DNA of 41,897 nt from an uncultured Candidatus Saccharibacteria bacterium (GCA_964622365.1 CAZUPM010000002.1:1-41897); one strand, 5' to 3'. Shown: positions 1 to 20,182, counted from the first letter of the stretch. The notes: generated by a model not told the origin, from the sequence alone. A program made the numbers and translations.

Positions 1-987
1 GGTAATGTGGCGCATCACGAAATAGAGCGTAATGAAAAAGAAAACGCGGACTATACTTGGGGTGCCGACGGCGATATGAACAGAGCTGCGGCAGAGAGCG
101 ATAACGAAGCCGAGCTGCGGGCTAGACTGCACGAAATTGATCCCAAACGTTTTCAGGGTCTCGCGTTGGACGAAGCCGTATCGCGCATACAACGCATGCG
201 AAGAGGCATGGGAGCAGAGGCTTTTCGCCAAATGACTACCCTGCACGCCTTAGCCGCAGGCAATACTTACTTAGATCATACAGATGCTAACGGCGTTTTT
301 CATAGTGGCACTGCCGAGGCTTGGGAGGCGGTCGCTAAAGCCGCCGGCAATGATGATGCTGCTCTCGGTGCCTTGACGGGTCAAGCTAGAACCTTATTAA
401 TGCAAGCTGGTCACGTTGACCAAGGGGGCGCATCGTATGGCGTCTCACTAGCAGCAGCTAGTAGGATGCGTGACGAGTTGCGTAAAACAGGAACTGTATC
501 GGATGCTACGAAAGCTTCTGTCGCAAGATCAATACATCGTAGCGCAATTGAGTCTAGTGAGGTTGGCCAAGCAATCAGGGGCAAGCCTTCAAGCGCAGAG
601 CACCTTGCTCAAGCTCACGCCGATCGGATTCAAGAAATAGTTGACGGTATACAGGCAGGTACTCATACTCAACGTGATTTGGATATAGCCTACGCCGACG
701 TTATGGGCCTACACGATGCTATGTCGGCAGCGTCTCCGCAAAATGGACGAGCTTTTGCCGATGCGCTAATGAACGCCCAGGTGGTGGATCATGTCAATGG
801 TGGCCAGATGAGTGTTTATGATCTTGCTACAGATGAAACAACAGTCACCAATCCCGGATACGCACAAAGAAGGCGAGACTATTCCAGCGGCTATCAGGCC
901 GAGGCGGCTCGGGCGGCCCAGGCGGCGGCAGCTGGAGCAGCCCCACCTCCTCCAGGCGGCGGAGCTGGTAGTGCTCCAGCTGCCTGA
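1..987 (+). CDS. 3' portion of a hypothetical protein, open to the window edge, with an Ala/Pro/Gly-rich tail
   Basis: Frame 1 is open from nt 1 (GNVAHHEIE...) to the TGA at 985-987. I recognise no family motif. The C-terminus reads ...AAAGAAPPPPGGGAGSAPAA. Confidence 0.5.
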   Translation, partial: GNVAHHEIERNEKENADYTWGADGDMNRAAAESDNEAELRARLHEIDPKRFQGLALDEAVSRIQRMRRGMGAEAFRQMTTLHALAAGNTYLDHTDANGVFHSGTAEAWEAVAKAAGNDDAALGALTGQARTLLMQAGHVDQGGASYGVSLAAASRMRDELRKTGTVSDATKASVARSIHRSAIESSEVGQAIRGKPSSAEHLAQAHADRIQEIVDGIQAGTHTQRDLDIAYADVMGLHDAMSAASPQNGRAFADALMNAQVVDHVNGGQMSVYDLATDETTVTNPGYAQRRRDYSSGYQAEAARAAQAAAAGAAPPPPGGGAGSAPAA

Positions 988-1378: not shown

Positions 1379-1407
1379 TTGACAAAAAATTACAAATGTG
1401 GTATATT
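1379..1407 (+). promoter_or_regulatory. Near-consensus sigma70-type promoter
   Basis: TTGACA (1379-1384), an exact 17-nt spacer, then TATATT (1402-1407). The ATG at 1415 lies 7 nt after the -10 box and has no Shine-Dalgarno sequence. Confidence 0.6.
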
Positions 1408-1414
1408 CCTATAT

Positions 1415-2773
1415 ATGCCTGAGCCAGAAAATACAAACCCAGATCCAAGCATCGTCCCTAACTGGGAATTTGCTGACCACGGCGCGAATCCCGCCAACGA
1501 GCAAGGCCAGAATCAAGAAACCAATCCGCCTTTTATTAAAAGAATCGGTGATTTTGCTGTTAAATCTTCTGGGTTAGTTGGCCGGGGGGTTTGGGAAGCC
1601 ATAAAAACGACTGGACGGACGACGGCACGAGCTGCTGAGACGGCAGGTAGGAGCGCCGAACAAGCAACGCGTTATTTAGTAGAAGAGGGGCGCTTGGCAG
1701 TTTCTGGCATTATGCAAGCCGCCAGAGCAAGACGCCTACAGAAGGTTAATAAAAAAATCGATCATTTAACTAAGAGTTTAGGCGCGCATAGGGTAGCAGC
1801 CGCTATGACCTTAGTTGAAGGCAGGCCGGCGGCGGAAACCGAGGAAGATGAGCAAGATTGGGCCAGTAGAGGTGAGGCCATTGTGGAAGCTTACAGTAAT
1901 ACTTTTCGGCCGGTCACGCTTAGCCAACGTCAACAAGGTATAAGAGCAGAACGCCGATTGCGTAAAAATATGCATAGGGCTGTAAAAAACAGCAACTTGA
2001 AATTAAGCCACGAAAATATAGACAGCCATGACTTCACGGAGACATTAAGACAAGAACGACTAACAGGAAAAGAAAGAAGGCATGCTCGACACGCCCATCA
2101 CGAATACCACAAAAATGCCCGTAAAATCAGCCGGCCGCCTAGCGGTGGGACTTCGCTTTTTAGGCGCGCACCTGGTAACACCGGCAAGGTTACGCGCTCA
2201 GCGGCAGGCCAAGATATACCCGGTAGGATAATTAGGTGGCGATTAAAAAGGTGGCAAGATTTAGCTAACCTGGTTGGCGCGCCCAGAACGCATAGCGATG
2301 GATGGTACACAGCTCCTAGCCAACTTTACACGGGGCCGGCAGTAATGCCTGAGGGGCAGTTTGCTGCCGAATTAGAGCAGGCCAAAAATTATACTAGCCC
2401 CGAAGCATCTACTGCGACTCTGATTACAACGGAAACTGCGCAAGAAGAACCTCAAAAACGGAAGAGGGGGCGGGGGCTTACTAATCCGGAAAATGTCTTA
2501 AACCTTAAGCGTGGCATTAACCGCGAACTTGCAGAGTACTTACTAAACAACCCGGGCGTAACCAGCGACCATCTTAAATTAACGCAGGTTCAATCTTCTA
2601 TTGCCCAACGCCACTTAGAAGGTTATTTTGGATATACCATAAGGCAACTAGAAGATGGTAAGGTGCCGCAAAAAATACAGGACCAGGTGAACGACTTACT
2701 GGAGAAGCCACTGGAAGAACTAGAGCGATTGGCCGCCGAAAAGCAGAACAAGCGGTCGCGTAAAAAGTCCTAG
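1415..2773 (+). CDS. Hypothetical highly basic soluble protein, first gene of the T4SS-like operon
   Basis: The ORF 1379..2773 was trimmed to the ATG at 1415 (MPEPENT...) because the TTG at 1379 is the -35 box. The protein has Arg/Lys/His-rich tracts (RRHARHAHHEYHKNARK, KRKRGRG, KQNKRSRKKS), no hydrophobic helix and no motif I recognise. Confidence 0.7.
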   Translation: MPEPENTNPDPSIVPNWEFADHGANPANEQGQNQETNPPFIKRIGDFAVKSSGLVGRGVWEAIKTTGRTTARAAETAGRSAEQATRYLVEEGRLAVSGIMQAARARRLQKVNKKIDHLTKSLGAHRVAAAMTLVEGRPAAETEEDEQDWASRGEAIVEAYSNTFRPVTLSQRQQGIRAERRLRKNMHRAVKNSNLKLSHENIDSHDFTETLRQERLTGKERRHARHAHHEYHKNARKISRPPSGGTSLFRRAPGNTGKVTRSAAGQDIPGRIIRWRLKRWQDLANLVGAPRTHSDGWYTAPSQLYTGPAVMPEGQFAAELEQAKNYTSPEASTATLITTETAQEEPQKRKRGRGLTNPENVLNLKRGINRELAEYLLNNPGVTSDHLKLTQVQSSIAQRHLEGYFGYTIRQLEDGKVPQKIQDQVNDLLEKPLEELERLAAEKQNKRSRKKS

Positions 2774-2814
2774 CCCGAACAATACGCGCCCATCCCTTTA
2801 AGAATAAGCGCCAT

Positions 2815-2833
2815 TTGCTATAATTTATAGCAA
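2815..2833 (+). promoter_or_regulatory. Perfect 19-nt palindrome overlapping a TATAAT box and abutting the start codon
   Basis: TTGCTATAA-T-TTATAGCAA spans 2815-2833, TATAAT lies at 2819-2824 and the ATG is at 2834. Confidence 0.5.
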
Positions 2834-3964
2834 ATGGCAACATACAAAGTAATACAAGATATCGAGGCAGAGGACAAGCTGCTGGGGCCGTTGACGCTGC
2901 GTCAATTTATTTACGCTGGCATCACGGCCGTCTGTTTATATATGAGCTTTTTGGTAGTAACCAGAGGCGCCCCTTTTTTAATAATAGTTTTTTTGCCGGT
3001 GGCTCTGCTTTGCGGATTTTTTGCTTTTCCGTGGAAACAAGACCAACCAACGGAAGTCTGGGCGCTGGCCAAGGTCCGCTTTTTCTTTAAGCCGCACAAG
3101 CGTATTTGGAACCAAAGCGGTATTAAAGAGCTCGTTACGATCACCGCACCTAAAAAGGTGGTGGTAGATTACACCGATGGCCTTTCTCAGTCCCAAGTAA
3201 AAAGCCGCCTAAAGGCATTAGCCGACACCATAGACACGCGTGGGTGGGCAATTAAAAATGCCAACGTGAATTTATACAGCCACCCTCAGGCCGAGGCGCA
3301 GCAAGAAGCTAACTCCGACCGGCTTGTTGATCCTTCTGGCTTGCCTCAAGACGTACCGGCAATCGATGTCCAGGCCGCAGATGACATCTTGGACGAAAAA
3401 AGCAATCCTATAGCCCAGCATTTTGACCAAATGATCACCGCTGCCACGGCTACCCATCGTCAGCAGATTACTCAAACACTCAGGAATCAGGCCAACGCAG
3501 CTGCGGGCAATCAGTCGCCGACCGGTAACGCGCCGGCAGATCAAAACCAAGCCCAAAACGATTACTGGTTTATGAGCCAGCCGGGGCAGCAAAGTGCAAC
3601 TCCAAGTGGTTACGTAACATTCAACCCGGCGGTCGTGACGCCGGTAGACAACTACTACGAGCCGGCAGCCGAAACCGCCGAAGAGCAGGCCTTAGCTAAA
3701 AAATTACATGAACTACACGAGCAGCAAACTAAACCTTATAGCGGTTATTCCAACCTGCATACCATACAGCCGCTATCAGAGCGGGCTACAGCTAAAACAA
3801 CTTCGGCTAAAACCGCTAACGCTCCAGTGACACCGACACTTAATCCTGCTATAGTAGAACTTGCCAGCGACAACGACAAAGACGTCGCGACTCTTGCCCG
3901 GCTTGCCAACCAAAAAAAGCCGGCCAACAGTTCGCCGGATGAGGTCGTTATTTCGTTGCATTAA
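2834..3964 (+). CDS. PrgI/VirB3-like T4SS membrane protein with a long low-complexity C-terminal extension
   Basis: The N-terminus MATYKVIQDIEAEDKLLGPLTLRQFIY is followed by two adjacent hydrophobic helices (ITAVCLYMSFLVV, FLIIVFLPVALLCGFFAF). This layout matches PrgI-family/VirB3-like proteins as I recall them. The gene sits upstream of VirB4, as VirB3 genes usually do. Confidence 0.7.
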   Translation: MATYKVIQDIEAEDKLLGPLTLRQFIYAGITAVCLYMSFLVVTRGAPFLIIVFLPVALLCGFFAFPWKQDQPTEVWALAKVRFFFKPHKRIWNQSGIKELVTITAPKKVVVDYTDGLSQSQVKSRLKALADTIDTRGWAIKNANVNLYSHPQAEAQQEANSDRLVDPSGLPQDVPAIDVQAADDILDEKSNPIAQHFDQMITAATATHRQQITQTLRNQANAAAGNQSPTGNAPADQNQAQNDYWFMSQPGQQSATPSGYVTFNPAVVTPVDNYYEPAAETAEEQALAKKLHELHEQQTKPYSGYSNLHTIQPLSERATAKTTSAKTANAPVTPTLNPAIVELASDNDKDVATLARLANQKKPANSSPDEVVISLH

Positions 3965-3994
3965 TACTAAAATTCAAAATTCGGGTGGTCAATA

Positions 3995-4876
3995 ATGAAC
4001 CCAGCAGAGCCCAGCCAGCCGGCAACAGCAGTTTCCGTAGGCGGGACTAATCAGCAAGTAGCTAGTCCGGCGCAGCCTCAAGCTACAATATCGGCGCCTG
4101 TGGCAGGTGGAACAAGTCCAGCCACACGGCCCGCCATACAGCCCCATACAAATCCGAACAGCACGCAAAACGCCCTAGAAATAGCGGAAGTTCGTGACGG
4201 CTTAGTAATTATGAACGATGGCTCTTTTCGCTCCGCCGTGATGGTCAAGTCTATTAATTTTGACCTTATGAGCCCGCAGGAACAAGAGGGGGTCGAATAT
4301 AGCTATCAGGGCTTTTTGAACTCACTTTATTTTCCTGTGCAAATTTACATCCATTCGCAAAAGGTCGACCTGCAACCATACATAGATAAATTGTCCAAAA
4401 TCCGCAACGAGCACGATAACATGTTGTTAGCGATGCTGATGGACGATTATATAAATTTTATCGACCAAATTTCGCAGCAAACTAATATTATGGATAAGCA
4501 TTTTTATGTTGTCATACCTTTTTACCCGACCGTAGATGTACAGAAAACTTTATCCCAAAGCAAAAACTTCTTTTCCGGCGTGTTTACTATGTTTAATAAA
4601 AAAGATAAGCATGTTTCTATAAACGAAGCCGACCTCGAAAACGCCAAGACCGAATTGCGCAACAGGGTCCAGTCTGTGTTAAGTGCCCTGCAGCAATGTG
4701 GCGTCCAGGGGTTGCCGCTTGATACCCAGGAGTTGATTGAACTTTACTACGATACCTATAACCCGGACACCGCTACCCGACAGCAACTTAAAAGCTTTAA
4801 CGGTATGACGACTGAGATTATTACCAAGGGCCAGGGCACTGCTCCGCAGGCCCACCTGGAAGGTGGCTTGCAATGA
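3995..4876 (+). CDS. VirB4 N-terminal-domain-like protein lacking any ATPase domain
   Basis: After a Pro/Ala/Gln-rich leader, the region LEIAEVRDGLVIMNDGSFRSAVMVKSINFDLMSPQEQEGVEYSYQGFLNSLYFPVQIYIHS parallels the N-domain of the next gene (IAPSSIEFNAAYFRLGTRLARTYYVYGYPRQLYTGWISGLVNIDEVLDISMFIYP). There is no Walker A or B motif. A GGGTGG SD-like element lies 6 nt upstream of the ATG. Confidence 0.65.
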   Translation: MNPAEPSQPATAVSVGGTNQQVASPAQPQATISAPVAGGTSPATRPAIQPHTNPNSTQNALEIAEVRDGLVIMNDGSFRSAVMVKSINFDLMSPQEQEGVEYSYQGFLNSLYFPVQIYIHSQKVDLQPYIDKLSKIRNEHDNMLLAMLMDDYINFIDQISQQTNIMDKHFYVVIPFYPTVDVQKTLSQSKNFFSGVFTMFNKKDKHVSINEADLENAKTELRNRVQSVLSALQQCGVQGLPLDTQELIELYYDTYNPDTATRQQLKSFNGMTTEIITKGQGTAPQAHLEGGLQ

Positions 4877-4879
4877 GGC

Positions 4880-4938
4880 AAACTCCAAACTTAAAACTTC
4901 AAACTTCAAACAGTTCAGTGTTTGGTATTTGGCGTTTA
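4880..4938 (+). repeat. Heptamer tandem arrays (AAACTNN x5, then GNNTTTR x3) forming an imperfect hairpin
   Basis: The first array reads aaactcc aaactta aaacttc aaacttc aaacagt (4880-4914). The second reads gtgtttg gtatttg gcgttta (4918-4938). AAAC blocks can pair with GTTT blocks at 7-nt intervals. Confidence 0.85.
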
Positions 4939-4967
4939 AGCTCTACCTCCACAGGAGGCTTCCCCTG

Positions 4968-6899
4968 ATGCTCGGCAAGAAAAAGCAACCTATGGATCCG
5001 GTAGCGCTAGCTCAGGCCCAAAAAACGCGCGAAGACATGGAGGTAACGGCAGCCTTTCAAAAAGGCATTACCGCGCTGCGAGATTTTATTGCGCCCAGCT
5101 CTATAGAGTTTAACGCGGCGTATTTTCGGCTTGGGACACGTTTGGCGCGTACTTATTACGTTTATGGCTACCCTCGCCAGCTTTATACCGGTTGGATAAG
5201 CGGCTTGGTCAACATTGACGAAGTGCTGGATATTTCGATGTTTATTTATCCGGTTGAAAGCCAGGTGGTATTGGAAAACCTCCGCAAAAAAGTCACTCAG
5301 CTGGAGGCTGGCATACAACTTGATTCCGAAAAGGGCCGCGTGCGCGATCCGGGTAAACAAGCCGCCGTGCAGGATGCAGAGGAAATCCGTGACAAACTGC
5401 AGGTCGGCGAGGAACGGTTCTTTCGTTTCGGGCTTTACTTTACGGTTTATGGCAATAACCAGGACGAGCTCGACTTTATTTCGCACAAGATAGAATCAAT
5501 GCTAGGCCAGCAGCTGGTTTATTCCAAGCCTGCCAGTTCGCAGCAAGAGCAGGGCTTAAACAGCACTGTGCCGCAGTTTGACGACCAGCTACAAATCCGT
5601 CGCAATTTTTCAACCGGCGCTCTAAGCACCAGCTTTCCTTTCACAAGCGCGGATTTATCTGACGACAAGGGTGTCCTTTATGGCATTAACATGCATAACT
5701 CGGGCTTGGTGATATTCGATCGCTTTAGCCTGGAAAACGGCAACGCCGTGGTGTTCGCCAAATCTGGTGCCGGTAAAAGTTTTACCGTTAAACTCGAAGC
5801 CTTGCGCAGCCTGATGTTCGGTACGGAAATTTTGATAATCGACCCGGAGAATGAGTACGAACGCATGGCCGAAGCCGTTGGCGGCGCTTACTTACGATTG
5901 AGCCTTAGTTCAAACGCCCGCATTAATCCGTTTGATTTGCCTAAGGTCGTTGACCCCGAGGAAGCCGATAACGCCTTGCGTAGCAATCTAATAACTTTGC
6001 ACGGCCTTTTGCGCCTTATGATGGGCGGGGCGCAGTCACAGCTGCTTGGCGGCAATACCGCGTTAGTGCCCGCGCTAAATCCGGTTGAGGAATCGGACCT
6101 AGACGCCGCTTTGATCGAAACTTATGCCAAAGCCGGCATCACTAACGACCCGTTAACGCATACCGGCACGCCTCCCACTATTTCCGACCTTTACGAAACA
6201 CTGTTGCACATGGGCGGCACCGGGCCGCAACTGGCACAACGTTTGCGTAAATACACTTCCGGCACGTTTGCCGGAATTTTTAGCCAGCAGAGTAATATCG
6301 ATATAAACAATCCCTTGGTCGTCTTTAATGTTCGCGACCTAGAAGATGAGCTTAGGCCGGTGGCCATGTACATCGTGCTTAATTACATCTGGAACAAAAC
6401 TAAGGCCGACAGAAAACGGCGGATTTTAGTCGTGGATGAAGCCTGGCAGCTTATGAAGTATGAAGACAGCGCCAGTTTTTTGTTCAGCCTGGCCAAACGG
6501 GCCCGCAAATACAACCTGGGCATAACTACAATAACCCAAGACGTGGAAGATTTTATGGGTAGCCGGATGGGCCGGGCAATCGTGGCTAACGCTTCGATGC
6601 AGTTTTTGCTTAAACAGTCTACTTCGGCGGTTGACGTTTTGGCGGACGTGTTTAAGCTAACGAGCGAGGAGCGCAAACGCTTAAGCCAGTTCCCCGTTGG
6701 GCAGGGCCTGTTTTTTGCCGGCCCTAATCATGTGCATATCCAGGTTGTGGCCAGCCCGACAGAAACCGGTCTTATTACGACTAATCCAGAGCAAGTCAAG
6801 CAGCTGGAGCAAGCCGGGGAATTAAGTGGCTCACAGGGGACCATTGATTTAGAGAACCGTCTGGCGCCCGGCTCAGCCGGCCTGCCGGTTGGGCAGTAA
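4968..6899 (+). CDS. virB4: VirB4/TrbE/PrgJ-family T4SS ATPase
   Basis: Walker A is AKSGAGKSFTVK and Walker B is RILVVDEAWQLM, preceded by a VirB4-type N-domain. I chose the start at ATG 4968 (MLGKKKQP...), preceded by AGGAGG 9 nt upstream, rather than the GTG at 4863. Confidence 0.9.
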   Translation: MLGKKKQPMDPVALAQAQKTREDMEVTAAFQKGITALRDFIAPSSIEFNAAYFRLGTRLARTYYVYGYPRQLYTGWISGLVNIDEVLDISMFIYPVESQVVLENLRKKVTQLEAGIQLDSEKGRVRDPGKQAAVQDAEEIRDKLQVGEERFFRFGLYFTVYGNNQDELDFISHKIESMLGQQLVYSKPASSQQEQGLNSTVPQFDDQLQIRRNFSTGALSTSFPFTSADLSDDKGVLYGINMHNSGLVIFDRFSLENGNAVVFAKSGAGKSFTVKLEALRSLMFGTEILIIDPENEYERMAEAVGGAYLRLSLSSNARINPFDLPKVVDPEEADNALRSNLITLHGLLRLMMGGAQSQLLGGNTALVPALNPVEESDLDAALIETYAKAGITNDPLTHTGTPPTISDLYETLLHMGGTGPQLAQRLRKYTSGTFAGIFSQQSNIDINNPLVVFNVRDLEDELRPVAMYIVLNYIWNKTKADRKRRILVVDEAWQLMKYEDSASFLFSLAKRARKYNLGITTITQDVEDFMGSRMGRAIVANASMQFLLKQSTSAVDVLADVFKLTSEERKRLSQFPVGQGLFFAGPNHVHIQVVASPTETGLITTNPEQVKQLEQAGELSGSQGTIDLENRLAPGSAGLPVGQ

Positions 6900-6905
6900 T
6901 GTGCC

Positions 6906-9668
6906 ATGGCAGTTTACGACGACCAAAAAGATAAGCAGATCGGTTTAGAAAACCCTCTGACCCCAGACGATAATACCGGGCAGCCTACTGGCTCAGGGCT
7001 GAAACAACTAGAAAACAAAGGGGCCCCTTATACAGCCTCAAATACAAGCGGCCAACAGCCAAGCAAGACCCTCAGCCCGCAAGGTCTACATACTGCTGAG
7101 CAAAAAGCTGGAGCATCTTCTAATACTGCGAGGTCAGACGACACCATCAACTCAAACCTTAACGGCGGTTTTTGGAAAGAAGATAGCAAAACTTCTAATT
7201 CTTCTTCTCGCCTTAAAAAGGCTTTAGCTGTAGCCCAAACTACTGTTTTGGGTAGTCGACGAAAGAAACTGTTGGTTGGCGGAGGAGTGGGTGGCTTAAT
7301 AGCTTTATTCGCTATGATTTTTGGCTTGGGGGGCTTAGTATCGTACGAACTAGTACACATAGAGAAAAACCTCGTCCATTACGAGGCAAAGATTGAACAG
7401 CATTTTGAAAAGGGGGCTGCTAAAAAAATAATTCAGGAAACTATAAGTAGACTTAAAAATAAAAGTGCGGCACAAGACCAACAAGATGCAAGCAAAGAGA
7501 CTGCTAGTGGCGAGGAATTAGCAGCCGAAATGGATAGTTTTGATATCACCAGCCCACAAGTAAAAAGCGATTTAGCAAAGGCTGGTGTAACGGTTGAGAC
7601 CGATGCGGCTGGTAATTTTACCGGCCTTAAAGACGCCCAAGGTAATGATATAACTAACGAAATCGGCACTAACAATGCCCTCTTCGATCAAGTGGAAGCC
7701 GGCTTGCCGGAATGGGACGTGGGACAAATAGAATCTTTTAGAAAAACTATGTATGACTGGGCCGATAGCTCTTTTGATGTTTTGCCGGATTCTGCCAACG
7801 ACAACGGTGCTAAAAAAATTGTGGAGGATACCGTTGCGGAGGGCGCCGATGCTGTACAGGCATCTGAAGCTACATTAGAAGAAGATCAACAACCTCCTGA
7901 TAAGAATGCCACTCCCACGGAACAACAGACCTTTAACGATGCCCAAGGATTGGGTAACGACTTAGTTAATGCCGAAAATACTGTAATGGCAGATGTTAAT
8001 TCCGGCATGAGCGAATCCCAGGCTATTGCCGACGCCACCAGTAAGTTCACCCTAGGTAATACACTACTGGCCAGCGTAATAGTCAGTGATTTGTGCAGTA
8101 TTAAAAAAGTTGCAACAGAAGCCGCCAACAGCAGAGTCCCCGAGATAATCACTTTGCTTATCCGGCATGGTACAACGCTGATAAGTTTGGCGGACCAGAT
8201 TAAATCAGGAAACGTGACCAGCAAAGAGGTAAATCAAGTTATGTCAATTTTTAACGGCAATCCGGCCGCCCAGCCCAATTCAAACGGTACGCCAACAGAA
8301 GCCTCTATGCCCTTTAGTAGCTCTGCCGGCTGGCAGCAAGCAACCAGCGGTTTTGCGGATCCGAGCGCGGCGCAAATACAAAGTTCGGCAATCCCCACAG
8401 CGAATACTGGCACTAACATAGTAAGCGAGATAAATGGATTATTAGATAAGGTATCGGTGCCAGGGATTTCTTTCCTGGGGGCTAACGGAGTATGCGCACT
8501 GGAAAACAGTGCCTTTGGTACCATAGCCAATAGTTTAGGTGGAATAGTACAACTTTTTGGAGATGGTTTTTCGTTCGGCACTAGCCAGGTTATATTTACA
8601 GGTGGTTTAATTTTTGTCCAACACGAGCTGCAAAGCACAATAATCCCCGCCATTCTTCGATACTTCACGCCTATAGGTATAGACGGGCACGAGAACTCCG
8701 TGCAGTGGCTTAATAACGCCGGGGTAGGGCTTAATCTATCTTTTGGTAATTACGCCCGGAGTATAGGTGGCAGCTCGCTCAATAAAAGCCAGGCAGATAC
8801 CTTAACAACTGCCGCCAACAATGCCAACACCATCACCGAATCACGTTTGCCGTGGACAACCCGCATATTTGCGCTTAGCAACCCCCAATCTTTAGCCGCC
8901 CGGTTAGTGGGGGATTTGCCGTTGGGGCTTGATAAAACAGTGTCTAGCATTGCCAGTTACTTTGCCAATCTACCGTCTACCATCTTTCACGGCTTGGCGA
9001 ATATCATATTACATCCGGCTTTTGCCGTCCAAAATAACGCTAATGCCGGATATGTGCAGGGTGTATATGGCATTACCCAATATGGGCTTACTGATAGCGC
9101 TGTAAATAAATATGATCCTATTAGTAATGAACAGTACTTATTTTCCACCGTTTACTATGACGGGCATTCAGCCAGGCGCATAGATATGTTGGGCAATCCC
9201 AATATTTACACGAGTAGTCCATGTAGAAGTGCCACCCAAGGTTGTGATCCTAACAATAATGATTTGCTTCATTGCTATGTGGACAGTTATGCACAGTTAG
9301 CTGATAGTACAGACCATTTAACCGATGCGGCCAAAGAATATTGCGGAGCGGTAGTAGACCCAAATACGGGACTTTTGGTGGGGGGTTTAGGCACGTTTGA
9401 CTGCCAGGACCAAGGGCAAGGCTCTTCCAATGGTACGCAGGCAACTAGTTTTATTAACGACCCGAACTGTATAGATAACCCCGATTATTTCCCTGGCAAT
9501 CAGCAGGTAATACAAATTTACTGCCAGGACCTTGTGGGCAATCCTAACGATCCCGCTTGTGATGCCGCGGTCGCTCCACAAATTCATGATGATGTCGGGC
9601 ATTTTGAACAGTATTTGGTCGACACGCACGTAATGGCAGATTACACAAGTTTAAGTAATAATAAATGA
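6906..9668 (+). CDS. Large single-pass membrane protein with an extracytoplasmic domain and a Cys-rich C-terminal region
   Basis: The 920-aa protein has a Ser/Thr/Gln-rich N-terminal ~115 aa, then the TM helix LLVGGGVGGLIALFAMIFGLGGLV. Further hydrophobic stretches occur near FGTSQVIFTGGLIFV. Eight Cys lie in the last ~170 aa. I recognise no family. Confidence 0.75.
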   Translation: MAVYDDQKDKQIGLENPLTPDDNTGQPTGSGLKQLENKGAPYTASNTSGQQPSKTLSPQGLHTAEQKAGASSNTARSDDTINSNLNGGFWKEDSKTSNSSSRLKKALAVAQTTVLGSRRKKLLVGGGVGGLIALFAMIFGLGGLVSYELVHIEKNLVHYEAKIEQHFEKGAAKKIIQETISRLKNKSAAQDQQDASKETASGEELAAEMDSFDITSPQVKSDLAKAGVTVETDAAGNFTGLKDAQGNDITNEIGTNNALFDQVEAGLPEWDVGQIESFRKTMYDWADSSFDVLPDSANDNGAKKIVEDTVAEGADAVQASEATLEEDQQPPDKNATPTEQQTFNDAQGLGNDLVNAENTVMADVNSGMSESQAIADATSKFTLGNTLLASVIVSDLCSIKKVATEAANSRVPEIITLLIRHGTTLISLADQIKSGNVTSKEVNQVMSIFNGNPAAQPNSNGTPTEASMPFSSSAGWQQATSGFADPSAAQIQSSAIPTANTGTNIVSEINGLLDKVSVPGISFLGANGVCALENSAFGTIANSLGGIVQLFGDGFSFGTSQVIFTGGLIFVQHELQSTIIPAILRYFTPIGIDGHENSVQWLNNAGVGLNLSFGNYARSIGGSSLNKSQADTLTTAANNANTITESRLPWTTRIFALSNPQSLAARLVGDLPLGLDKTVSSIASYFANLPSTIFHGLANIILHPAFAVQNNANAGYVQGVYGITQYGLTDSAVNKYDPISNEQYLFSTVYYDGHSARRIDMLGNPNIYTSSPCRSATQGCDPNNNDLLHCYVDSYAQLADSTDHLTDAAKEYCGAVVDPNTGLLVGGLGTFDCQDQGQGSSNGTQATSFINDPNCIDNPDYFPGNQQVIQIYCQDLVGNPNDPACDAAVAPQIHDDVGHFEQYLVDTHVMADYTSLSNNK

Positions 9669-11515
9669 TTAAAAGAGTATTCTTTTTAAGTCTAGCATTA
9701 CTAATCATAACGCCTCTGGGTCAGGCTTTAGCGATTAGTTCACAAGATAGTAGTAGTCTTTATGGTGATAGTGAATACTACTGGCCCAACCAACCCAAGT
9801 GTGATGTAGGTTCTAGTGCCTCTTCTTCCGGCGGGAGTTTAGCTTCAGGATCAAGCATATATATATTAGGTGATTCCATTACCGAACGGGCGCAAAGCGC
9901 GTATCAAACTACTTTTCAGCAAGAAGGCATAGTGGCTAACGTAGACGCCGAAGCCAGCCGTAGCCTAAACGGACCAGGACAAGACGGTAATAAAACTACT
10001 GGTATGCAGGCTATTGCCCAAGATGCTTCGCAGATTAAACTAGCTGGCGCCATAGTGATAGCCCTGGGTACTAATGGCGGCGATACCAACCAAAGCATAG
10101 ACCAAGCAATTGCCGCTATACGTGCCGATAATTCTACAGCTCCTATATATTGGGTTGACTTGATCTCGGTTGGCAGAACCGATAATTACAACCAAACCGT
10201 AATTGGCCCTGGCAACCAGGCAATTTACAGCCAGGCGTCAAGTCAAAACTATCAGGTTATATCATGGTTTAAAACTGTGGATTCTGCCGGTGATCCCCAA
10301 AATCCAACGCCCAAAGAAACTGACCCAAACCATTACATAGACAATAGTGACGGGCTAGGCGTGCACCCCACGCAAGCAGGTATAACTGCCCTGGTTAATT
10401 TAGTATCCGGCACCGTTACCGGCAGCTCTACCCAAACAGCAAGCGGGGCTTCATGTGCTTGCAGTACCGGCAATACACCTTTGGTCGGTTCGGATAACAT
10501 TCAGAAAGCCTTCAACTTCCTTGTTGGCAAAGGGCTAACCGCGAATCAGGCCGCAGCAGTCATTGGTAACCTTGAGCAGGAATCCGGGCAAGGACTCAAT
10601 CCCTCTGCTGACCAAAATAAGGGCACGGCCACAACACCAACACCTAATGACGGGTTCGGCATAGCCCAATGGACTGACCCCGGCAGACAACAAGGACTTG
10701 TCACCCTTGCCCAACAAGAGGGAAAGCCGCCTAATGATTTAGGCGTACAGCTTGACTACTTGTGGCAAGAGCTGACCACCACGCATTCCAATGCATTAAC
10801 AGCACTTAAGGCTGCTGATAATGTCCAGTCTGCTACGATAGCATTCGAGCAGACTTACGAAGCGGCCGGGACGCCTCAGATGCAAAACCGTATAAATTTT
10901 GCGCAAGCTGTTTTAACACAATATGGCGGTTCGGCTCCTTCAGGCAGCAGCCAAACTTCTAGTTCCGGTTGCTCCGTAGGCGCCATTAACTGTAACAGCT
11001 CAAACTCCGCAACAAGCACAAGTGGTCTTAGCCAAGTTAGGAAAAATGTAGTGTGTATAGCTCAGCAGGAATTGGCGTTATGGGAGTCGCAGCCAGGCTA
11101 TCCTTGGAACGGTGAAAACAGTTATTCCGAAACTGGGTACTTAAAATACAGCGAGGGACGTCACGAAGAATGGTGTGCGGACTTTGCTAGTTGGGTTTAT
11201 GACCAAGCCGGTTATCCATTACAGCCAGACCCCAACTGGAATGTTTCTTACGTACCTAACATACAATCTATTGGCGAACAAAACATAAAGTTTCATTGGC
11301 ACCCAGCAGGTAGCGGCTATACGCCTAAGCCAGGAGACTTAGCCATACACGGGTCTCAACACGTCAATATATTTATTTCTTCCAGCGGTGGGACCTCTAC
11401 TTATATAGGCGGAGACCAAGGTAACGGCCCTTATCCTGGGGGCTCAATAGTATCTACTGATACGGAAAGCGGGTACTATTCGGGCGGAATAACTGGTTAC
11501 GTTTCACCGGATTAA
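9665..11515 (+). CDS. Secreted three-domain cell-wall hydrolase (SGNH esterase + phage-tail-type lysozyme + CHAP)
   Basis: The signal peptide is MIKRVFFLSLALLIITPLGQALA. SGNH blocks are IYILGDSITE, ALGTNGG and DGLGVHPT. The lysozyme-like segment reads AAAVIGNLEQESG...GFGIAQWT. The CHAP-like segment has Cys in EWCADFASWVY and His in GDLAIHGSQHVNIF. The ATGA overlaps the upstream stop. Confidence 0.8.
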   Translation: MIKRVFFLSLALLIITPLGQALAISSQDSSSLYGDSEYYWPNQPKCDVGSSASSSGGSLASGSSIYILGDSITERAQSAYQTTFQQEGIVANVDAEASRSLNGPGQDGNKTTGMQAIAQDASQIKLAGAIVIALGTNGGDTNQSIDQAIAAIRADNSTAPIYWVDLISVGRTDNYNQTVIGPGNQAIYSQASSQNYQVISWFKTVDSAGDPQNPTPKETDPNHYIDNSDGLGVHPTQAGITALVNLVSGTVTGSSTQTASGASCACSTGNTPLVGSDNIQKAFNFLVGKGLTANQAAAVIGNLEQESGQGLNPSADQNKGTATTPTPNDGFGIAQWTDPGRQQGLVTLAQQEGKPPNDLGVQLDYLWQELTTTHSNALTALKAADNVQSATIAFEQTYEAAGTPQMQNRINFAQAVLTQYGGSAPSGSSQTSSSGCSVGAINCNSSNSATSTSGLSQVRKNVVCIAQQELALWESQPGYPWNGENSYSETGYLKYSEGRHEEWCADFASWVYDQAGYPLQPDPNWNVSYVPNIQSIGEQNIKFHWHPAGSGYTPKPGDLAIHGSQHVNIFISSSGGTSTYIGGDQGNGPYPGGSIVSTDTESGYYSGGITGYVSPD

Positions 11516-11530
11516 TGAGATAATTTAAGC

Positions 11531-12307
11531 ATGTTGATTGAAGCCTTGCGAAAATATAAAAAGCAGTTATTATTGGCGCTACTTTGTTTACTGGTTATCC
11601 TTGCCGGCTATTTTGCTTACGAGTTGTACCAATCTAAGCATTTTCGCGTTATTAGAACTAACCCTACCGTTAACAATTTCGATAACGTATCGCCTTTCTT
11701 TAAGCTAACTTTTAACAGAACTTTGGTAGGCGCCGGTATAAAACTTACCTCAACGCCTTCCATCATTAAGTCCTATACTGTTAGCGGTAGCACTGTTGAT
11801 GTAAGCATCGAAACACCACTAAAAGCAAATAATAAATATACAATTACCATCAACTCCATTTACGACACTAAGAATGAACACATATACAATAAAAAGATTT
11901 CTTTTGTCCCAATATATGTCCCCTCCCAATCAATACCCCAAGACCAAAAAAAAGCACTCTTAAAAGCGCAGGTTGTCCACCCCGCATCCAAAGCAAATAT
12001 TGTATTTGCCGGTATACAGTCCCTGGTAAATTACGGGGTAACAGAAGCCCAGATCAACGATTTAGAGCAGGCGCTTTATAAGTTCCAGCCCACTGCTCAA
12101 ACGGTTAGTATATACGCCAGCACTATCAAGGTGGCGCCCCACAACCCCGAAAGCTCTAGCACAACTTCCACGATATATTTTAGTGTAGCTGTGGGCCCCA
12201 CAACTTACCAGGCTACAATAAATTACTCTAGCTTAAACAACTTGCAGTTAATTTTAAACAATGCTCGGGGCAGCCAAGTTTTCGATTCCGGAGTTATTAC
12301 ATCTTAG
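11531..12307 (+). CDS. N-terminally membrane-anchored protein with an Ig-like (SbsA/Big-like) beta-rich ectodomain
   Basis: The TM helix is LLLALLCLLVILAGYFAY. The following beta-rich segment reads TSTPSIIKSYTVSGSTVDVSIETPLKANNKYTITINSIYD. Confidence 0.6.
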   Translation: MLIEALRKYKKQLLLALLCLLVILAGYFAYELYQSKHFRVIRTNPTVNNFDNVSPFFKLTFNRTLVGAGIKLTSTPSIIKSYTVSGSTVDVSIETPLKANNKYTITINSIYDTKNEHIYNKKISFVPIYVPSQSIPQDQKKALLKAQVVHPASKANIVFAGIQSLVNYGVTEAQINDLEQALYKFQPTAQTVSIYASTIKVAPHNPESSSTTSTIYFSVAVGPTTYQATINYSSLNNLQLILNNARGSQVFDSGVITS

Positions 12308-12317
12308 TAATAAGGGC

Positions 12318-12346
12318 TAGACATATTTTAGTTTAGATGCTATAAT
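12318..12346 (+). promoter_or_regulatory. Candidate promoter for the lipoprotein gene
   Basis: TAGACA (12318-12323), a 17-nt spacer, then TATAAT (12341-12346). A purine-rich AAGGGGTAGG lies ahead of the GTG at 12390. Confidence 0.4.
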
Positions 12347-12389
12347 TAATGGGTTAAGGATTTTGTTTTGTAGCAAGGGGTAGGTAGTC

Positions 12390-13094
12390 GTGCGGGAAGC
12401 CAATTTTGATAATAATATAGAATCTCCAACGAATCATAATACACTCTCAGTAAGGCGTTTTAGACGTTTAGCTAAAGTTGCTGGCCTTGCTTCTTTATCG
12501 ATTTTGGCGGCTTGCGGTTCCACAGGAGTAGCTTCTTCTCCAGATAGTACGCCCTCTTCCACAACACCTCCGCCTACTTCATCTGGTCGAGGGAACACGC
12601 CCACACAAAACACTCTAAATCCCAATTTTGACCTTTGCGCTGTAATACCAAGTAGTGTAGCTGCAGAAGTTACTGGCACCACTAGCTTTCATTGTTATCC
12701 GCATGTTAATTTTGGTACTGGCGATTATAACAGCACAATAAATGCCGCTTGGAAATTTAAAGATTCCGGAGTTAATAGCATAGCTAGCGTAGTTGCACTA
12801 ATCGAGCCTGAGCATATTAGCCCTAATAGCACCGGAACCCATGCTAGTTCTATGACAAAATTCTTTAGAGATATTACTCCTGACGCACAACCAATTTATG
12901 GTGGCGTAGATGGAGAAAATGCGTATTGGAGCAGTGCAGGTCAGAGCTTGTTGGTCAATGAAGGAGACTATGACGTCCAGATACAAGCATTGTGGTATAC
13001 AATACCACTAAATTCAGAGCAGAGGCTGTCTACCTTGGCTAGCGCTGTTATAGTCTATGGTTTAGAGGGTTCTCAATCTGTCTTCAAAAGTTGA
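12390..13094 (+). CDS. Putative lipoprotein
   Basis: After the basic n-region RRFRRLAK comes the h-region and lipobox LSILAAC, then a Ser/Thr/Pro linker. The gene starts with GTG. Its 3' end overlaps the 3' end of recF by 11 nt, convergently. Confidence 0.65.
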   Translation: MREANFDNNIESPTNHNTLSVRRFRRLAKVAGLASLSILAACGSTGVASSPDSTPSSTTPPPTSSGRGNTPTQNTLNPNFDLCAVIPSSVAAEVTGTTSFHCYPHVNFGTGDYNSTINAAWKFKDSGVNSIASVVALIEPEHISPNSTGTHASSMTKFFRDITPDAQPIYGGVDGENAYWSSAGQSLLVNEGDYDVQIQALWYTIPLNSEQRLSTLASAVIVYGLEGSQSVFKS

Positions 13095-14169
13095 TCGAGC
13101 TAGTGTTTTTGCCCAAAGGGATGATGTTGGTGGTTTCGGTAAAGTGCTGAAGCACGACGTCGGCGTCCGTGGTAGTTATGAACGTCTGATACGGCTTTAA
13201 AAACTTGGTAAGCATTTGGCGGCGGCGGCCATCCAGCTCGCTAAAAACGTCATCTAGCAGCAACATGGGTTTAGTGCCGCGCATTTTATCTAGCTGTTGG
13301 GCTTCCAGCATTTTGAGCGCCAGCAGCAGCGTACGGTTTTCCCCGCGCGAAGCAGTTTGCTGCATTGGCCGGCCGTTTATAAAAATCAACAGGTCATCCC
13401 GATGCGGGCCATGGGCGGTAAAGCCGCGCTCCAAATCTGTCGCTTTGTTGGCTTCCAGTTTGTCTAGCAGGGCACTGGCGTAATTTTTGATGGGGATAGT
13501 GCTGGCATATGACACTTCAATTTTTTCTTTGGTTTTAGACATTTTATCGTAAAGTACGCCTATCTGGCTGTTCATAGCTGCTACCATTTGCGCGCGAGAA
13601 GCGGCAATCTGCGCGCCTAATTCACTCAAACGGATATTCCAGGCAAAAAGCTGGTTGCCCACTTTGTGCGAGCCATTTTTTAATAGGGTGTTGCGCTGCG
13701 ACAGCGCGCGCCTGTACTGGCGCCCGACCAGCCCATAACCAACAACAGTCTGCTCCAGTAGGCCATCTAAAAACTGACGGCGCAGTTCCGGGCTCCCATT
13801 AAATAATTGCAAATGGTCGGGCTCAAAAAGTACGACCGGTAGGGTTTTAGCTGGATTTAGGCGCCTCAGAGATTGCCCGCCCAGTTGGTAACTTTTATGA
13901 ACGCGCCCGTTTTCGGCCTCCAGTTTAACGACCCGGTTTTCGTTTTTGGAAGTATGGGCTTCGACCCGGGCCCATGGCGCATCAAACCGAATAAGCTCGG
14001 TATCTTTGGCGCGGTATGAACTACCGCGGGCAACCACCAAGATGGCTTCCAATAGGTTGGTTTTGCCGCTGGCGTTAGGCCCGATAATAATGTTTACCCC
14101 GGGCGAAAGTTCAAACGACTCATCTTTGTACGAACGGAATCGTTGCAAATAAATATCAGTAATCATCAA
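13084..14169 (-). CDS. recF: DNA replication and repair protein RecF
   Basis: Walker A is GPNASGKTNLLEAI, with LLLDDVFSELD near the C-terminus. The gene has the conserved position after dnaN. Confidence 0.95.
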   Translation of the reverse strand: MMITDIYLQRFRSYKDESFELSPGVNIIIGPNASGKTNLLEAILVVARGSSYRAKDTELIRFDAPWARVEAHTSKNENRVVKLEAENGRVHKSYQLGGQSLRRLNPAKTLPVVLFEPDHLQLFNGSPELRRQFLDGLLEQTVVGYGLVGRQYRRALSQRNTLLKNGSHKVGNQLFAWNIRLSELGAQIAASRAQMVAAMNSQIGVLYDKMSKTKEKIEVSYASTIPIKNYASALLDKLEANKATDLERGFTAHGPHRDDLLIFINGRPMQQTASRGENRTLLLALKMLEAQQLDKMRGTKPMLLLDDVFSELDGRRRQMLTKFLKPYQTFITTTDADVVLQHFTETTNIIPLGKNTSSINF

Positions 14170-14197: not shown

Positions 14198-15289
14198 TCA
14201 ACTCTTCAGAGGCATAATGACATGAACATATTCGCTGCCGGCAGGATCTTTTAAAACCGACGGCTCAAGTTTGCCGTTAAAGCAAAAACTGATTTCTTCG
14301 CCGCTAAAGGCATGTAGGCCATCCAGCATGTAACGTGAATTAATGGTTATTTCGCCGCTACCGGTAATTTTACCGCTGGTGCTGGCGGTATTTTCACCTA
14401 ACTGTGAGGCTATGGAGTGGATGCTTACCTTTTTACTAGGCTCATCGATTTTAACCGTGATGCTACCGGCGCTTTCGCGGGCAAACAGGCTGGATACCTT
14501 TGTGATATTTTGTAGTTCAGACCGCTTTACGGTGGCAGTAACCGCGAATTTAGCAGGGATAAGCTTGCGGTAATCCGGGTAATTGCCGTCGATCAGCCTT
14601 GTTACCAGCTCTACGTCACCTACCCGAAACTGGACTTGCTGGCCATCATGCATAATCTGTACTTCTTCTGGCGTTTCGCCCAGAATCCGCAGAAGATCTT
14701 GCAGCGCAGAAGCTGGGATTAGTAGCTGGGCTTGCTGTTTAGAGTTGGTCATTTTGCGTTCGGCTAAACGGTAGCTATCGGTAGCCACGGCGTAAAGCGC
14801 ACCTTCAAAGTCGTGCACATAAACGCCCGTAAGGGCCGGCCTGGCTTCATCACTACTGGCCGCGAATATCACCTGGCTTAAGGCTTCTTTTAAGAGCTCT
14901 CCGGATATTTTCCAGTTTTTACCCTCACCAATAGCTGGCATCACGGGAAATTCATCAACTGATATCCCATTAATTACAGATTGGTATTGGTCGGTTGATA
15001 TTAATAGCTTATGTTCTTCGAGCTCAAGATTAATAACCCCTGGTGGTAGACTACTAATAAACTCTTGCATCAGCCGAGCGGGTACAGTTATACCGCCCTT
15101 ATCACTTATTTTCGAGCCTATGTAGTGGGTTATGGCTATGTCCAGGTTAGTTGCCGCGATACTTAAGCGGTTTCCTACGGTTTTTAGGACCACGTTGGCT
15201 AAAATCGGTAGAGTGCTCCTGCTATTTGCCACCCTAGCAACACTATTCATCGCCTTGTTTAGGTTTTCTTGGGTGACTTGCAGCTTCAA
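14198..15289 (-). CDS. dnaN: DNA polymerase III beta sliding clamp
   Basis: The 363-aa protein has a typical N-terminus (MKLQVTQENLNKAMNSVARVANSRSTLPILANVVL) and lies directly downstream of dnaA. Confidence 0.95.
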   Translation of the reverse strand: MKLQVTQENLNKAMNSVARVANSRSTLPILANVVLKTVGNRLSIAATNLDIAITHYIGSKISDKGGITVPARLMQEFISSLPPGVINLELEEHKLLISTDQYQSVINGISVDEFPVMPAIGEGKNWKISGELLKEALSQVIFAASSDEARPALTGVYVHDFEGALYAVATDSYRLAERKMTNSKQQAQLLIPASALQDLLRILGETPEEVQIMHDGQQVQFRVGDVELVTRLIDGNYPDYRKLIPAKFAVTATVKRSELQNITKVSSLFARESAGSITVKIDEPSKKVSIHSIASQLGENTASTSGKITGSGEITINSRYMLDGLHAFSGEEISFCFNGKLEPSVLKDPAGSEYVHVIMPLKS

Positions 15290-19498: not shown

Positions 19499-19527
19499 TT
19501 GACGAACTTAGCTAACTTAGCTAATAT
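19499..19527 (+). promoter_or_regulatory. Promoter of the toxin-antitoxin pair, whose spacer is a tandem 9-mer
   Basis: TTGACG (19499-19504), a 17-nt spacer, then TAATAT (19522-19527). The direct repeat AACTTAGCT AACTTAGCT (19505-19522) fills the spacer and runs 1 nt into the -10 box. The ATG at 19535 lies 7 nt after the -10 box. Confidence 0.5.
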
Positions 19528-19534
19528 AATTTAT

Positions 19535-19780
19535 ATGAAGGCAATTACCATACACGACGCTAAAACCAATCTAAGCAAATATATAGCGGACGCTAAAAAA
19601 GGCGATAAGGTTTATATTGGCGGCTTTGGCAAAGCCGAAGTTATGCTGGTTGCGGTAGATAAGCGTGATATAAGCCCTAAACAACGTACATTCAGTGCCG
19701 CTCGGGGCAAGATAGAGGCTAAACCGGACGCCTTTAGCGCTTCAACCGACAAGGCCGTTGAATACCTGCTGCTTGGCTAA
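19535..19780 (+). CDS. Phd/YefM-type antitoxin
   Basis: The N-terminus MKAITIHDAKTNLSKYIADAKKGDKVYI is typical of prevent-host-death antitoxins. The gene lies 9 nt upstream of a PIN-domain gene. Confidence 0.8.
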   Translation: MKAITIHDAKTNLSKYIADAKKGDKVYIGGFGKAEVMLVAVDKRDISPKQRTFSAARGKIEAKPDAFSASTDKAVEYLLLG

Positions 19781-19789
19781 AAGCCCGAC

Positions 19790-20182
19790 ATGAAACTTTT
19801 AATAGATACCCAAGTGTTTGTGTGGCTGATTAACGACAATCAGGCACTGGGCACCAAAGTCAAACGGCTGCTGACTGAGCCGACAAACCAAGTGGCGCTT
19901 AGTTATTTTTCCCTGTTTGAAATAGTTATTAAGACCAGCATTGGCAAAATGGCCTACGACCCTTCGGTCATAGATGACTTGCCCGCGATGGACATCAACT
20001 TTCTATTGCCAACCACTAAACACCTAACCAACTATCAAATCTATGACCAAACCAACAAAGACCCTTTTGATAATATGCTGTTAACGGTGGCCGAAACCGA
20101 AAAACAGGTTTTTCTGACGGCTGATAAAAAAATACTCCAAACCCGCGGTTATACCCACAAACTGATTGACGCCACCAAGTAA
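19790..20182 (+). CDS. PIN-domain (VapC-like) toxin
   Basis: The N-terminus is MKLLIDTQVFVWLIND, and DPFDNMLLTVAETEKQVFLTADKKIL matches the C-terminal acidic PIN motifs. Confidence 0.8.
   Translation: MKLLIDTQVFVWLINDNQALGTKVKRLLTEPTNQVALSYFSLFEIVIKTSIGKMAYDPSVIDDLPAMDINFLLPTTKHLTNYQIYDQTNKDPFDNMLLTVAETEKQVFLTADKKILQTRGYTHKLIDATK

Follow-up and report, generated by a model that had tools for sequence, protein, structure and literature searches.

Positions 1379 to 13,094 of the window hold eight open reading frames (ORFs), all on the plus strand, that belong for the most part to a type IV secretion system (T4SS). By the window we mean the whole 41,897-nucleotide (nt) stretch of DNA analysed here, which comes from an uncultured Candidatus Saccharibacteria bacterium (GCA_964622365.1 CAZUPM010000002.1:1-41897). 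An earlier note, made from the sequence without database searches, had described eight co-directional, tightly packed genes, and the ORF calls agree, with intergenic gaps of -4 to 91 nt (Table 1). The cluster is convergent with the minus-strand genes recF-dnaN-dnaA and adjoins the chromosomal replication origin. A scan of a genome collection for the PrgI protein of the cluster returned 364 related loci, nearly all labelled Saccharibacteria or Saccharimonadales. Most locus comparisons below draw on 80 of these 364 loci, almost all of them from metagenome-assembled genomes (MAGs) of Saccharibacteria or Saccharimonadales, and single loci of relatives are given as L0xx. Judged by these relatives of its PrgI locus, the source organism is a member of the Saccharimonadales (Saccharibacteria/TM7), in line with the ultra-small epibiont that had been suggested from the gene content. 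The recF-dnaN-dnaA neighbourhood recurs in 53 of the 80 related loci and in Southlakia epibionticum, and the order PrgI, TrsD, VirB4, large protein, hydrolase, anchored protein, recF, dnaN is conserved across the relatives. We consider it very probable that the region makes up the larger part, on the dnaA side, of a chromosomal T4SS of the Patescibacteria type and that it is orthologous to SEML1_0004-0011 of S. epibionticum.

Table 1 Features of the T4SS locus and the adjoining replication genes, with positions counted from the first nucleotide of the window (aa, amino acids; TM, transmembrane; pI, isoelectric point)
Feature	Position	Strand	Main evidence
Putative VirB6-like polytopic channel protein, C-terminal 328 aa (cytoplasmic tail)	1..987	+	gene cut by left window edge
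Basic accessory protein, 464 aa, highly charged, soluble	1379..2773	+	pI 9.9, no TM segment
PrgI/VirB3-like membrane protein	2834..3964	+	PF12666 2.4e-12, residues 5-91
TrsD/TraC-like protein, 293 aa	3995..4876	+	NF041427 TrsD 5.7e-7
VirB4-family ATPase, CD1110 / MPF_FATA type	4968..6899	+	NF045971 1.6e-107
920-aa bitopic cysteine-rich protein	6906..9668	+	TM aa 122-145; 8 Cys in aa 773-885
Secreted cell-wall hydrolase, SGNH/GDSL esterase + phage-tail-type lysozyme + CHAP peptidase	9665..11515	+	PF18013 2.5e-31
TM-anchored extracytoplasmic protein, Ig-like + C-terminal ~110-aa domain	11531..12307	+	Big_5 1.2e-4
Lipoprotein, lineage-specific	12390..13094	+	LAAC lipobox 12504-12515
recF	13084-14169	-	translation
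dnaN	14198-15289	-	translation
dnaA	15540-16958	-	translation

The PrgI/VirB3-like protein was recognised correctly from the start. It scores 47.6 bits against PF12666, for which the cut-off is 27, and begins with a hairpin of two TM segments (approximately residues 25-65) that is followed by a long low-complexity tail. Its median identity to the relatives is 49%.

The TrsD-like protein aligns with the N-terminal part of four full-length VirB4 profiles, among them CD1110 at positions 11-119. Its score of 29.5 bits against NF041427 lies below the family cut-off of 200, which places the protein outside that NCBIfam subfamily. PF26593 (TraC-like) is present in its orthologues in L081, L083 and L086. 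Across 78 loci its median identity is 70%, and its gene is adjacent to virB4 in 78 of the 80 loci. A comparison of the protein and of its profile with PDB sequences gave no match, and a single-sequence AlphaFold2 (AF2) model was unusable, with a predicted local distance difference test score (pLDDT) of 35.

The VirB4 ATPase covers positions 174-732 of the 752 positions of the CD1110 profile and is without the first approximately 170. The earlier note had made its reading of the cluster depend on a match of this ORF to VirB4 profiles, and NF045971 is indeed matched above its cut-off (360.7 bits against 325). The VirB4 C-terminal domain of PDB 4AG5 is matched at 1e-48. The Walker A and Walker B motifs occupy 5757-5780 and 6423-6446, respectively, the start at 4968 is fixed by alignment, and the median identity to 77 Saccharimonadales loci is 84%.

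These two neighbouring genes had been taken for an ATPase-less paralog of the VirB4 N-domain and a full VirB4. The N-domain character of the first and the ATPase assignment, start and Walker motifs of the second are retained, while paralogy and completeness are not. The genes cover complementary, non-overlapping parts of CD1110 and of three other VirB4 profiles, and the two family profiles do not resemble each other (hhalign probability 0.2%, with little diversity in the alignments). Because of this complementary coverage and the lack of mutual similarity, the pair is better read as a split VirB4 whose halves would together correspond to one full-length VirB4, and we rejected the reading as paralog plus full VirB4. 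An N-terminal domain and an ATPase in one polypeptide, as in CD1110, TrwK or TraC, is not what is encoded here. In 37 of 68 relatives, the stop of the TrsD gene and the start of virB4 share one nucleotide, whereas the window has an unusual 91-nt gap (4876-4968) instead.

The motor also exceeds housekeeping proteins in conservation. In a comparison with ten relatives, identities were 80-85% for VirB4, 61-80% for the TrsD-like protein, 60-73% for DnaN and 52-57% for RecF. The extracytoplasmic T4SS proteins are far less conserved than the motor in the same comparison (21-62%). A motor conserved above DnaN fits a core cellular function.

At the left edge of the window, the frame-1 ORF 1-987 is without an upstream stop and extends past the edge. 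BLASTP aligned it to residues 932-1200 of a 1201-aa protein with six TM segments, encoded upstream of PrgI in L040 (2e-16). A profile of the ORF matched the last approximately 270 aa of polytopic proteins of 900-1230 aa in at least 24 related loci, and these VirB6-like relatives carry PF19590 (TrbL_3) or weak PF04610 (TrbL) matches. On these alignments, the window appears to begin within a VirB6-like gene of about 900-1280 aa, and the absence of a VirB6 channel protein, which the earlier note had recorded, would be an artefact of the edge.

The description of the apparatus as minimal had to be given up as well. In the relatives, the cluster continues upstream of PrgI with the VirB6-like gene, often a TM protein of approximately 140-160 aa, and divergent PF18895 pilins; Hsp20, ComFC-type and BrkB genes follow. 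Five to six VirB2-like (PF18895) pilin genes lie upstream of the VirB6-like gene in all relatives examined. A hidden Markov model of the pilins gave no match at E<=10 among 254 ORF segments of the window. Proteins of 137-162 aa with an N-terminal TM segment were seen upstream of the VirB6-like gene at L022:5916-6404, L025:4638-5111, L040:4331-4744 and L008:6004-6432. They gave weak NTF2-like matches (MecA_N, DUF4829, DUF4864, DUF5104), all below the family cut-offs. These weak matches hint that the small TM and NTF2-like proteins of the relatives may have the architecture expected for a VirB8-like component.

The basic protein, described as soluble already in the first reading, has no match in Pfam or NCBIfam. 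Its TTG start at 1379 overlaps a promoter-like TTGACA-17-TATATT at 1379-1407; hence, the true start is likely the ATG at 1415. The promoter scan as a whole was at chance level (17 sites against 15.5 expected), and this site and a second one at 12318-12346 are only suggestive. A separate charged gene of 300-470 aa occupies the same position, after the VirB6-like gene, in approximately 12 of 68 relatives. Two of these (L061, L074) show detectable similarity, and the 470-aa protein at this position in L040 shows none. The basic protein is an optional, fast-evolving component.

The 920-aa protein had been characterised as a single-pass protein with a Cys-rich tip, which is borne out (Table 1). A disordered cytoplasmic N-terminus of approximately 120 aa precedes the one TM segment, and a large all-alpha extracytoplasmic domain follows it. 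The word-indexed homologue search was nearly blind to the fast-evolving parts of the system, with 4-5 matches for this protein even with a 35-sequence profile and a single match for the Ig-anchored protein. With a profile of nine close sequences, the family was recovered at this place in 53 of 56 loci, and the following round recovered it in all 56. An exhaustive search of 1.84 billion proteins yielded 553 cluster representatives. The family is fast-evolving, specific to Saccharimonadia and located at the position of SEML1_0007. Some of its members have an added VanY DD-peptidase domain, as has SEML1_0007 itself. The protein matches no Pfam family, and its profile gave nothing above noise against PDB sequences. 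An AF2 model from an 86-sequence alignment is confident (pLDDT 76, predicted template modelling score 0.78) and almost wholly alpha-helical, and Foldseek found nothing better than E 0.1 for it in PDB and BFVD. Five cysteines (C397, C530, C790, C813, C885) are conserved, which fits an extracytoplasmic location.

The wall hydrolase carries a signal peptide. Of the three modules proposed in the first reading, the lysozyme is matched clearly (Table 1), and GDSL (PF13472, 2.6e-6) and CHAP (PF05257, 2.6e-4) are both below the Pfam cut-offs, with their motifs present. The motif GDSIT (9869-9883), the catalytic Cys in WCADFA (11171-11188) and the His in HVNIF (11360-11374) are intact. The protein would be the VirB1/PrgK analogue of the system, as had been proposed. 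Its position is kept in 54 loci, and the catalytic modules are shuffled between species. Phage_lysozyme2 was found in 22 of the 54 loci, CHAP in 13, NlpC/P60 in 10, Amidase_3 in 8 and Peptidase_C39_2 in 4; M23, SLT, GDSL, glucosaminidase, GH3, PlyCA_N and others occur in one or two loci each. The SGNH/GDSL module seen in the window hydrolase is present in two of the 54.

The Ig-anchored protein is a TM-anchored Ig-like protein, as first described. The TM segment spans aa 12-30, and the Big_5 match is borderline (23.2 bits against a cut-off of 23.6). Members of its family occupy the corresponding place in at least 30 of 56 loci, and the protein stands where S. epibionticum has SEML1_0005, an essential PEGA/Ig-like protein. 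The earlier note had called the non-ATPase parts of the apparatus essentially uncharacterised, and this holds for the 920-aa, basic and Ig-anchored proteins.

The last gene encodes a lipoprotein with an LAAC lipobox, which confirms its class. A homologue was found in only one of 56 loci (L018). The gene has its own promoter-like site (12318-12346), and the lipoprotein is probably outside the T4SS core. An RRFRRL stretch before the lipobox (signal region 12453-12515) resembles a twin-arginine motif.

Genes for conjugation were sought both in the window and next to the cluster in the relatives. Pfam and NCBIfam profile searches found no relaxase, type IV coupling protein (T4CP) or integrase in any ORF of the 41.9-kb window, so the earlier statement that a relaxase and a VirD4-type coupling ATPase are not visible in it is upheld. 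There is no tRNA in the window, and flanking att-like repeats are limited to short repeats at chance level. The earlier note had also named the upstream contig as the place where VirD4, a relaxase or the borders of an integrative and conjugative element (ICE) might be found. Within 10 kb upstream in the relatives, there is no relaxase, T4CP or integrase, and BrkB, ComFC, Hsp20 and pilin genes are found instead. What marks an ICE or an MPF_FATA conjugation system, namely a linked relaxase and T4CP, integrase, att or tRNA borders and a patchy distribution, is not seen at this locus. These results, and a location next to recF-dnaN-dnaA that is constant in more than 50 species, speak against an ordinary conjugation module or ICE.

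The closest described counterpart is the T4SS of S. epibionticum ML1 (SEML1_0004/0006-0019), in which SEML1_0004-0010 correspond nearly gene by gene to the window in length and order. The conserved series from PrgI to dnaN likewise agrees with SEML1_0003-0010, the lengths being almost identical. Counted from recF, both have a small exported protein, an Ig/PEGA-like exported protein, a hydrolase of approximately 620-640 aa with lysozyme and Cys-peptidase modules and a protein of approximately 900-1100 aa. The shared order continues with VirB4 (approximately 613-643 aa), a TrsD-like protein of 293/294 aa, PrgI and, to judge from the tail present in the window, a large VirB6-like protein. The dnaA-dnaN-recF adjacency and the absence of a relaxase and a T4CP nearby are likewise common to both. 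The window differs in having the additional 464-aa basic protein between the VirB6-like gene and PrgI, and its hydrolase has an SGNH module in place of the second lysozyme-like module. Furthermore, its 920-aa protein is without a recognisable DD-peptidase domain, its lipoprotein was unrelated to SEML1_0004 in the tests made, and both the pilins and the membrane domain of VirB6 fall outside the window.

Several reports have described such systems. Wang 2023 (PMC10633639) found by transposon sequencing (Tn-seq) that the S. epibionticum cluster beside dnaA-dnaN-recF is essential for epibiotic growth. Pilins were noted, the pilin arrays were essential, and recognisable coupling and relaxase proteins were lacking. 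Quinonero-Coronel 2025 (PMC12102498) covers 2,474 Patescibacteria virB4 genes, which form a clade related to MPF_FATA. It gives TrsD as the commonest companion of VirB4, along with PrgI, VirB6, VirB2 arrays and proximity to dnaA, and relaxases as rare. McLean 2020 (PMC7427843) reports, for TM7x and throughout the phylum, a region in which VirB4, VirB6 and PrgI are accompanied by small secreted proteins in an array. Compared with the Patescibacteria VirB4 clade and the TM7x region of these two papers (TrsD, PrgI-type VirB3, VirB6, VirB2 arrays, dnaA/dnaN proximity, no relaxase), the window shows no difference in kind. It has VirB4, a TrsD-like gene directly upstream of it, PrgI and proximity to dnaA/dnaN without a relaxase or T4CP. 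The locus is one further member of the published, already known Saccharibacteria T4SS. The earlier proposal of a non-conjugative host-contact machine was right in substance; the novelty it implied is not upheld (PMC10633639, PMC12102498, PMC12857230). The label of a Gram-positive-type T4SS is apt for a monoderm, MPF_FATA-derived system.

Split motors and relaxase-less modules also occur outside Patescibacteria. In the Trs system of the Staphylococcus plasmids pGO1/pSK41 (TrsC-TrsD-TrsE-TrsG, a subclass of MPF_FATA), a separate TrsD that remotely resembles the VirB4 N-terminus is encoded upstream of a short VirB4 of approximately 670 aa. A VirB3-like TrsC and a wall hydrolase are further likenesses. 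The Trs system differs in serving plasmid conjugation with a relaxase and a T4CP and in being without pilins.

An 898-kb replicon of Pontibacillus sp. ALD_SL1 (L084, NZ_CP062975.1 351801-361354) carries two PF18895 pilins, a TrbL/VirB6-like protein, a PrgI/TraL-like protein, a TrsD-like protein, a CD1110 VirB4 and a large hydrolase. Identity to the window is 29.5% for the TrsD-like protein (1e-21) and 37% for VirB4. No T4CP or relaxase lies within 12 kb of this module, which adjoins flagellar genes and is not at a replication origin. The bearer is a free-living member of the Bacillota, and the hydrolase (1050 aa, NlpC/P60 and M23) directly follows VirB4. The module has no member of the 920-aa family, to which this hydrolase is unrelated (hhalign probability 0.3%). 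Pilin-bearing T4SS-like modules of monoderms thus extend beyond Patescibacteria. TrsD-like matches occur in 235 PLSDB plasmids, 181 of which are typed as non-mobilizable.

The highest identity of a plasmid VirB4 to that of the window (38.5%) was found in Embleya sp. (L085, NZ_CP108778.1). This plasmid encodes a 753-aa protein at the VirB6 position (annotated as hypothetical), PrgI, a small protein and VirB4. It differs in an ordinary conjugative layout, with a T4CP and a replication-relaxation protein directly after VirB4, where the window has the 920-aa protein. Embleya is an actinomycete and belongs to the host phylum of the cultivated Saccharibacteria. Further likenesses are Bordetella Ptl and Brucella VirB, which function without a coupling protein, their substrates arriving by another route. 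These are diderm MPF_T systems with VirB7, VirB9 and VirB10, and homology to them is limited to VirB4 and the VirB3/VirB6/VirB2 families.

The present analysis shows which parts are present, that they are syntenic with those of the relatives and that they adjoin the origin, and it found no relaxase, T4CP or ICE borders in the window or in the relatives' flanks. That such a cluster is essential for epibiotic growth is known from published Tn-seq of the orthologous S. epibionticum locus (PMC10633639). By analogy with known T4SS, a VirB4 hexamer would dock at the membrane onto the VirB6-like channel via PrgI and the TrsD-like protein, which would act as its detached N-domain. The secreted multi-module hydrolase would open peptidoglycan in the organism's own wall, the host wall or both. 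The VirB2-like pilins, the 920-aa protein and the Ig-anchored protein may build the extracellular, host-facing part. The machine would then serve epibiotic interaction instead of conjugation, by exporting protein to the host or by uptake from it, and its function is most likely that of a host-directed conduit. A 2025 review (PMC12857230) similarly speculates about a conduit for signal exchange with the host or for uptake of host molecules.

Four points weigh against this assignment. Nothing in the sequence decides the substrate or the direction of transport. We infer the pilin array and the VirB6 membrane domain of this genome from its relatives. The orthology of the 920-aa protein and SEML1_0007 is based on position and profile family, with no direct alignment. 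Finally, a T4CP may be encoded elsewhere in the genome, as S. epibionticum has one far from virB4, which is non-essential (PMC12102498).

The alternative that survives best is that the cluster forms mainly a pilus or adhesion organelle or a device for contact-dependent killing or lysis, with the hydrolase and the 920-aa protein as delivered or tip-exposed effectors. Evolution is far more rapid in the three extracytoplasmic proteins than in the cytoplasmic core, the hydrolase has its modules shuffled in the 54 loci as in phage lysins, and the essential pilin arrays of S. epibionticum (PMC10633639) would suit such an organelle. Nevertheless, the VirB1/PrgK-type hydrolase of monoderm conjugation is established to act on the donor's own wall, and no toxin/immunity pair was recognised in the cluster. 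The demonstrated adhesion organelle, moreover, is formed by type IV pili and not by the T4SS (PMC12857230, PMC12102498). We therefore regard this alternative as unlikely.

Less probable still, and in our view quite doubtful, is a competence machine for DNA uptake, comparable to H. pylori ComB or archaeal Ced, that imports host DNA as a nucleotide source. The organism is unable to make nucleotides according to the literature (PMC10633639), and a ComFC-type gene adjoins the cluster in the relatives, in S. epibionticum (PMC10633639) and in TM7x (PMC7427843). The weak profile matches to CedB (NF041017, 53.5 bits) and CedD (NF053655, 22.3 bits) point in the same direction, yet their cut-offs are 700 and 600, and the CedB score in particular is far under its threshold. 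Deletion of comEC in S. epibionticum abolished transformation and left viability unaffected, whereas the T4SS is essential (PMC12857230). Uptake of DNA through ComEC is therefore unlikely to be what makes the system essential.

A conjugative element (an ICE or integrated plasmid) or its decaying remnant, with relaxase and coupling protein just beyond the window, is hardly credible: the CD1110 / MPF_FATA affiliation of VirB4, the truly conjugative layout around the closest plasmid VirB4 (Embleya) and the cut on the upstream side of the cluster speak for it, and against it stand the same chromosomal place beside recF-dnaN-dnaA in more than 50 species, the relatives' 10 kb upstream without relaxase, T4CP or integrase, the lack of tRNA or flanking repeats, a VirB4 more conserved than DnaN and the finding of relaxases near only 15 of the 2,474 Patescibacteria virB4 genes (PMC12102498).

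Taken as a Patescibacteria-type T4SS, the locus itself is one more example of a published system and changes little. The system remains important as the first T4SS shown to be essential for the survival of its bearer (PMC12857230). What is added here is the 920-aa family, the shuffled modules of the hydrolase, the conservation of the motor above DnaN and the Bacillota megaplasmid modules. The 920-aa family, the module shuffling and the split-VirB4 reading are not described in the available portions of PMC12102498 or PMC7427843. Two handles on the substrate question are a Saccharimonadia-wide surface family of approximately 900 aa without a known fold and a hydrolase that is positionally fixed and module-shuffled. 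Further handles are the extreme conservation of the TrsD-VirB4 motor and the apparently relaxase-less, pilin-bearing modules in cultivable Bacillota, which may be tractable models. As a tentative extension, to which we give rather low odds, the 920-aa protein, the hydrolase and the Ig-anchored protein could form a host-specific wall-breaching or docking tip that sets the host range, like the receptor-binding and lysin modules of phages. In the same extension, the pilin-bearing, TrsD-type, relaxase-less module might be an older machine without a role in conjugation, which Bacillota megaplasmids share, and not an invention of Patescibacteria.

Four MAGs titled Nevskiaceae, Dormiibacterota, Parcubacteria and Bacillota (L006, L018, L023 and L058, respectively) carry a Saccharimonadales-type locus with a PrgI identity of 44-52%, which suggests mislabelled or contaminated bins. 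Beyond dnaA, the window continues with rnpA, yidC and jag (Pfam). A small ORF between dnaN and dnaA has no detectable relation to its positional counterpart in L081, and a search with Rfam found no RNA families in the window. Near the origin region, a Phd/YefM antitoxin and a PIN-domain toxin form a pair at 19499-20182. The remainder of the window (20193-41846) is taken up by a large surface-glycan locus with several GT4/GT2 glycosyltransferases, a GDP-mannose 4,6-dehydratase, a Wzm/Wzt-type ABC-2 exporter, GtrA, glmS and a sugar transferase. Within this locus, a 645-aa protein (27523-29460) contains three B_lectin (D-mannose-binding lectin) repeats.

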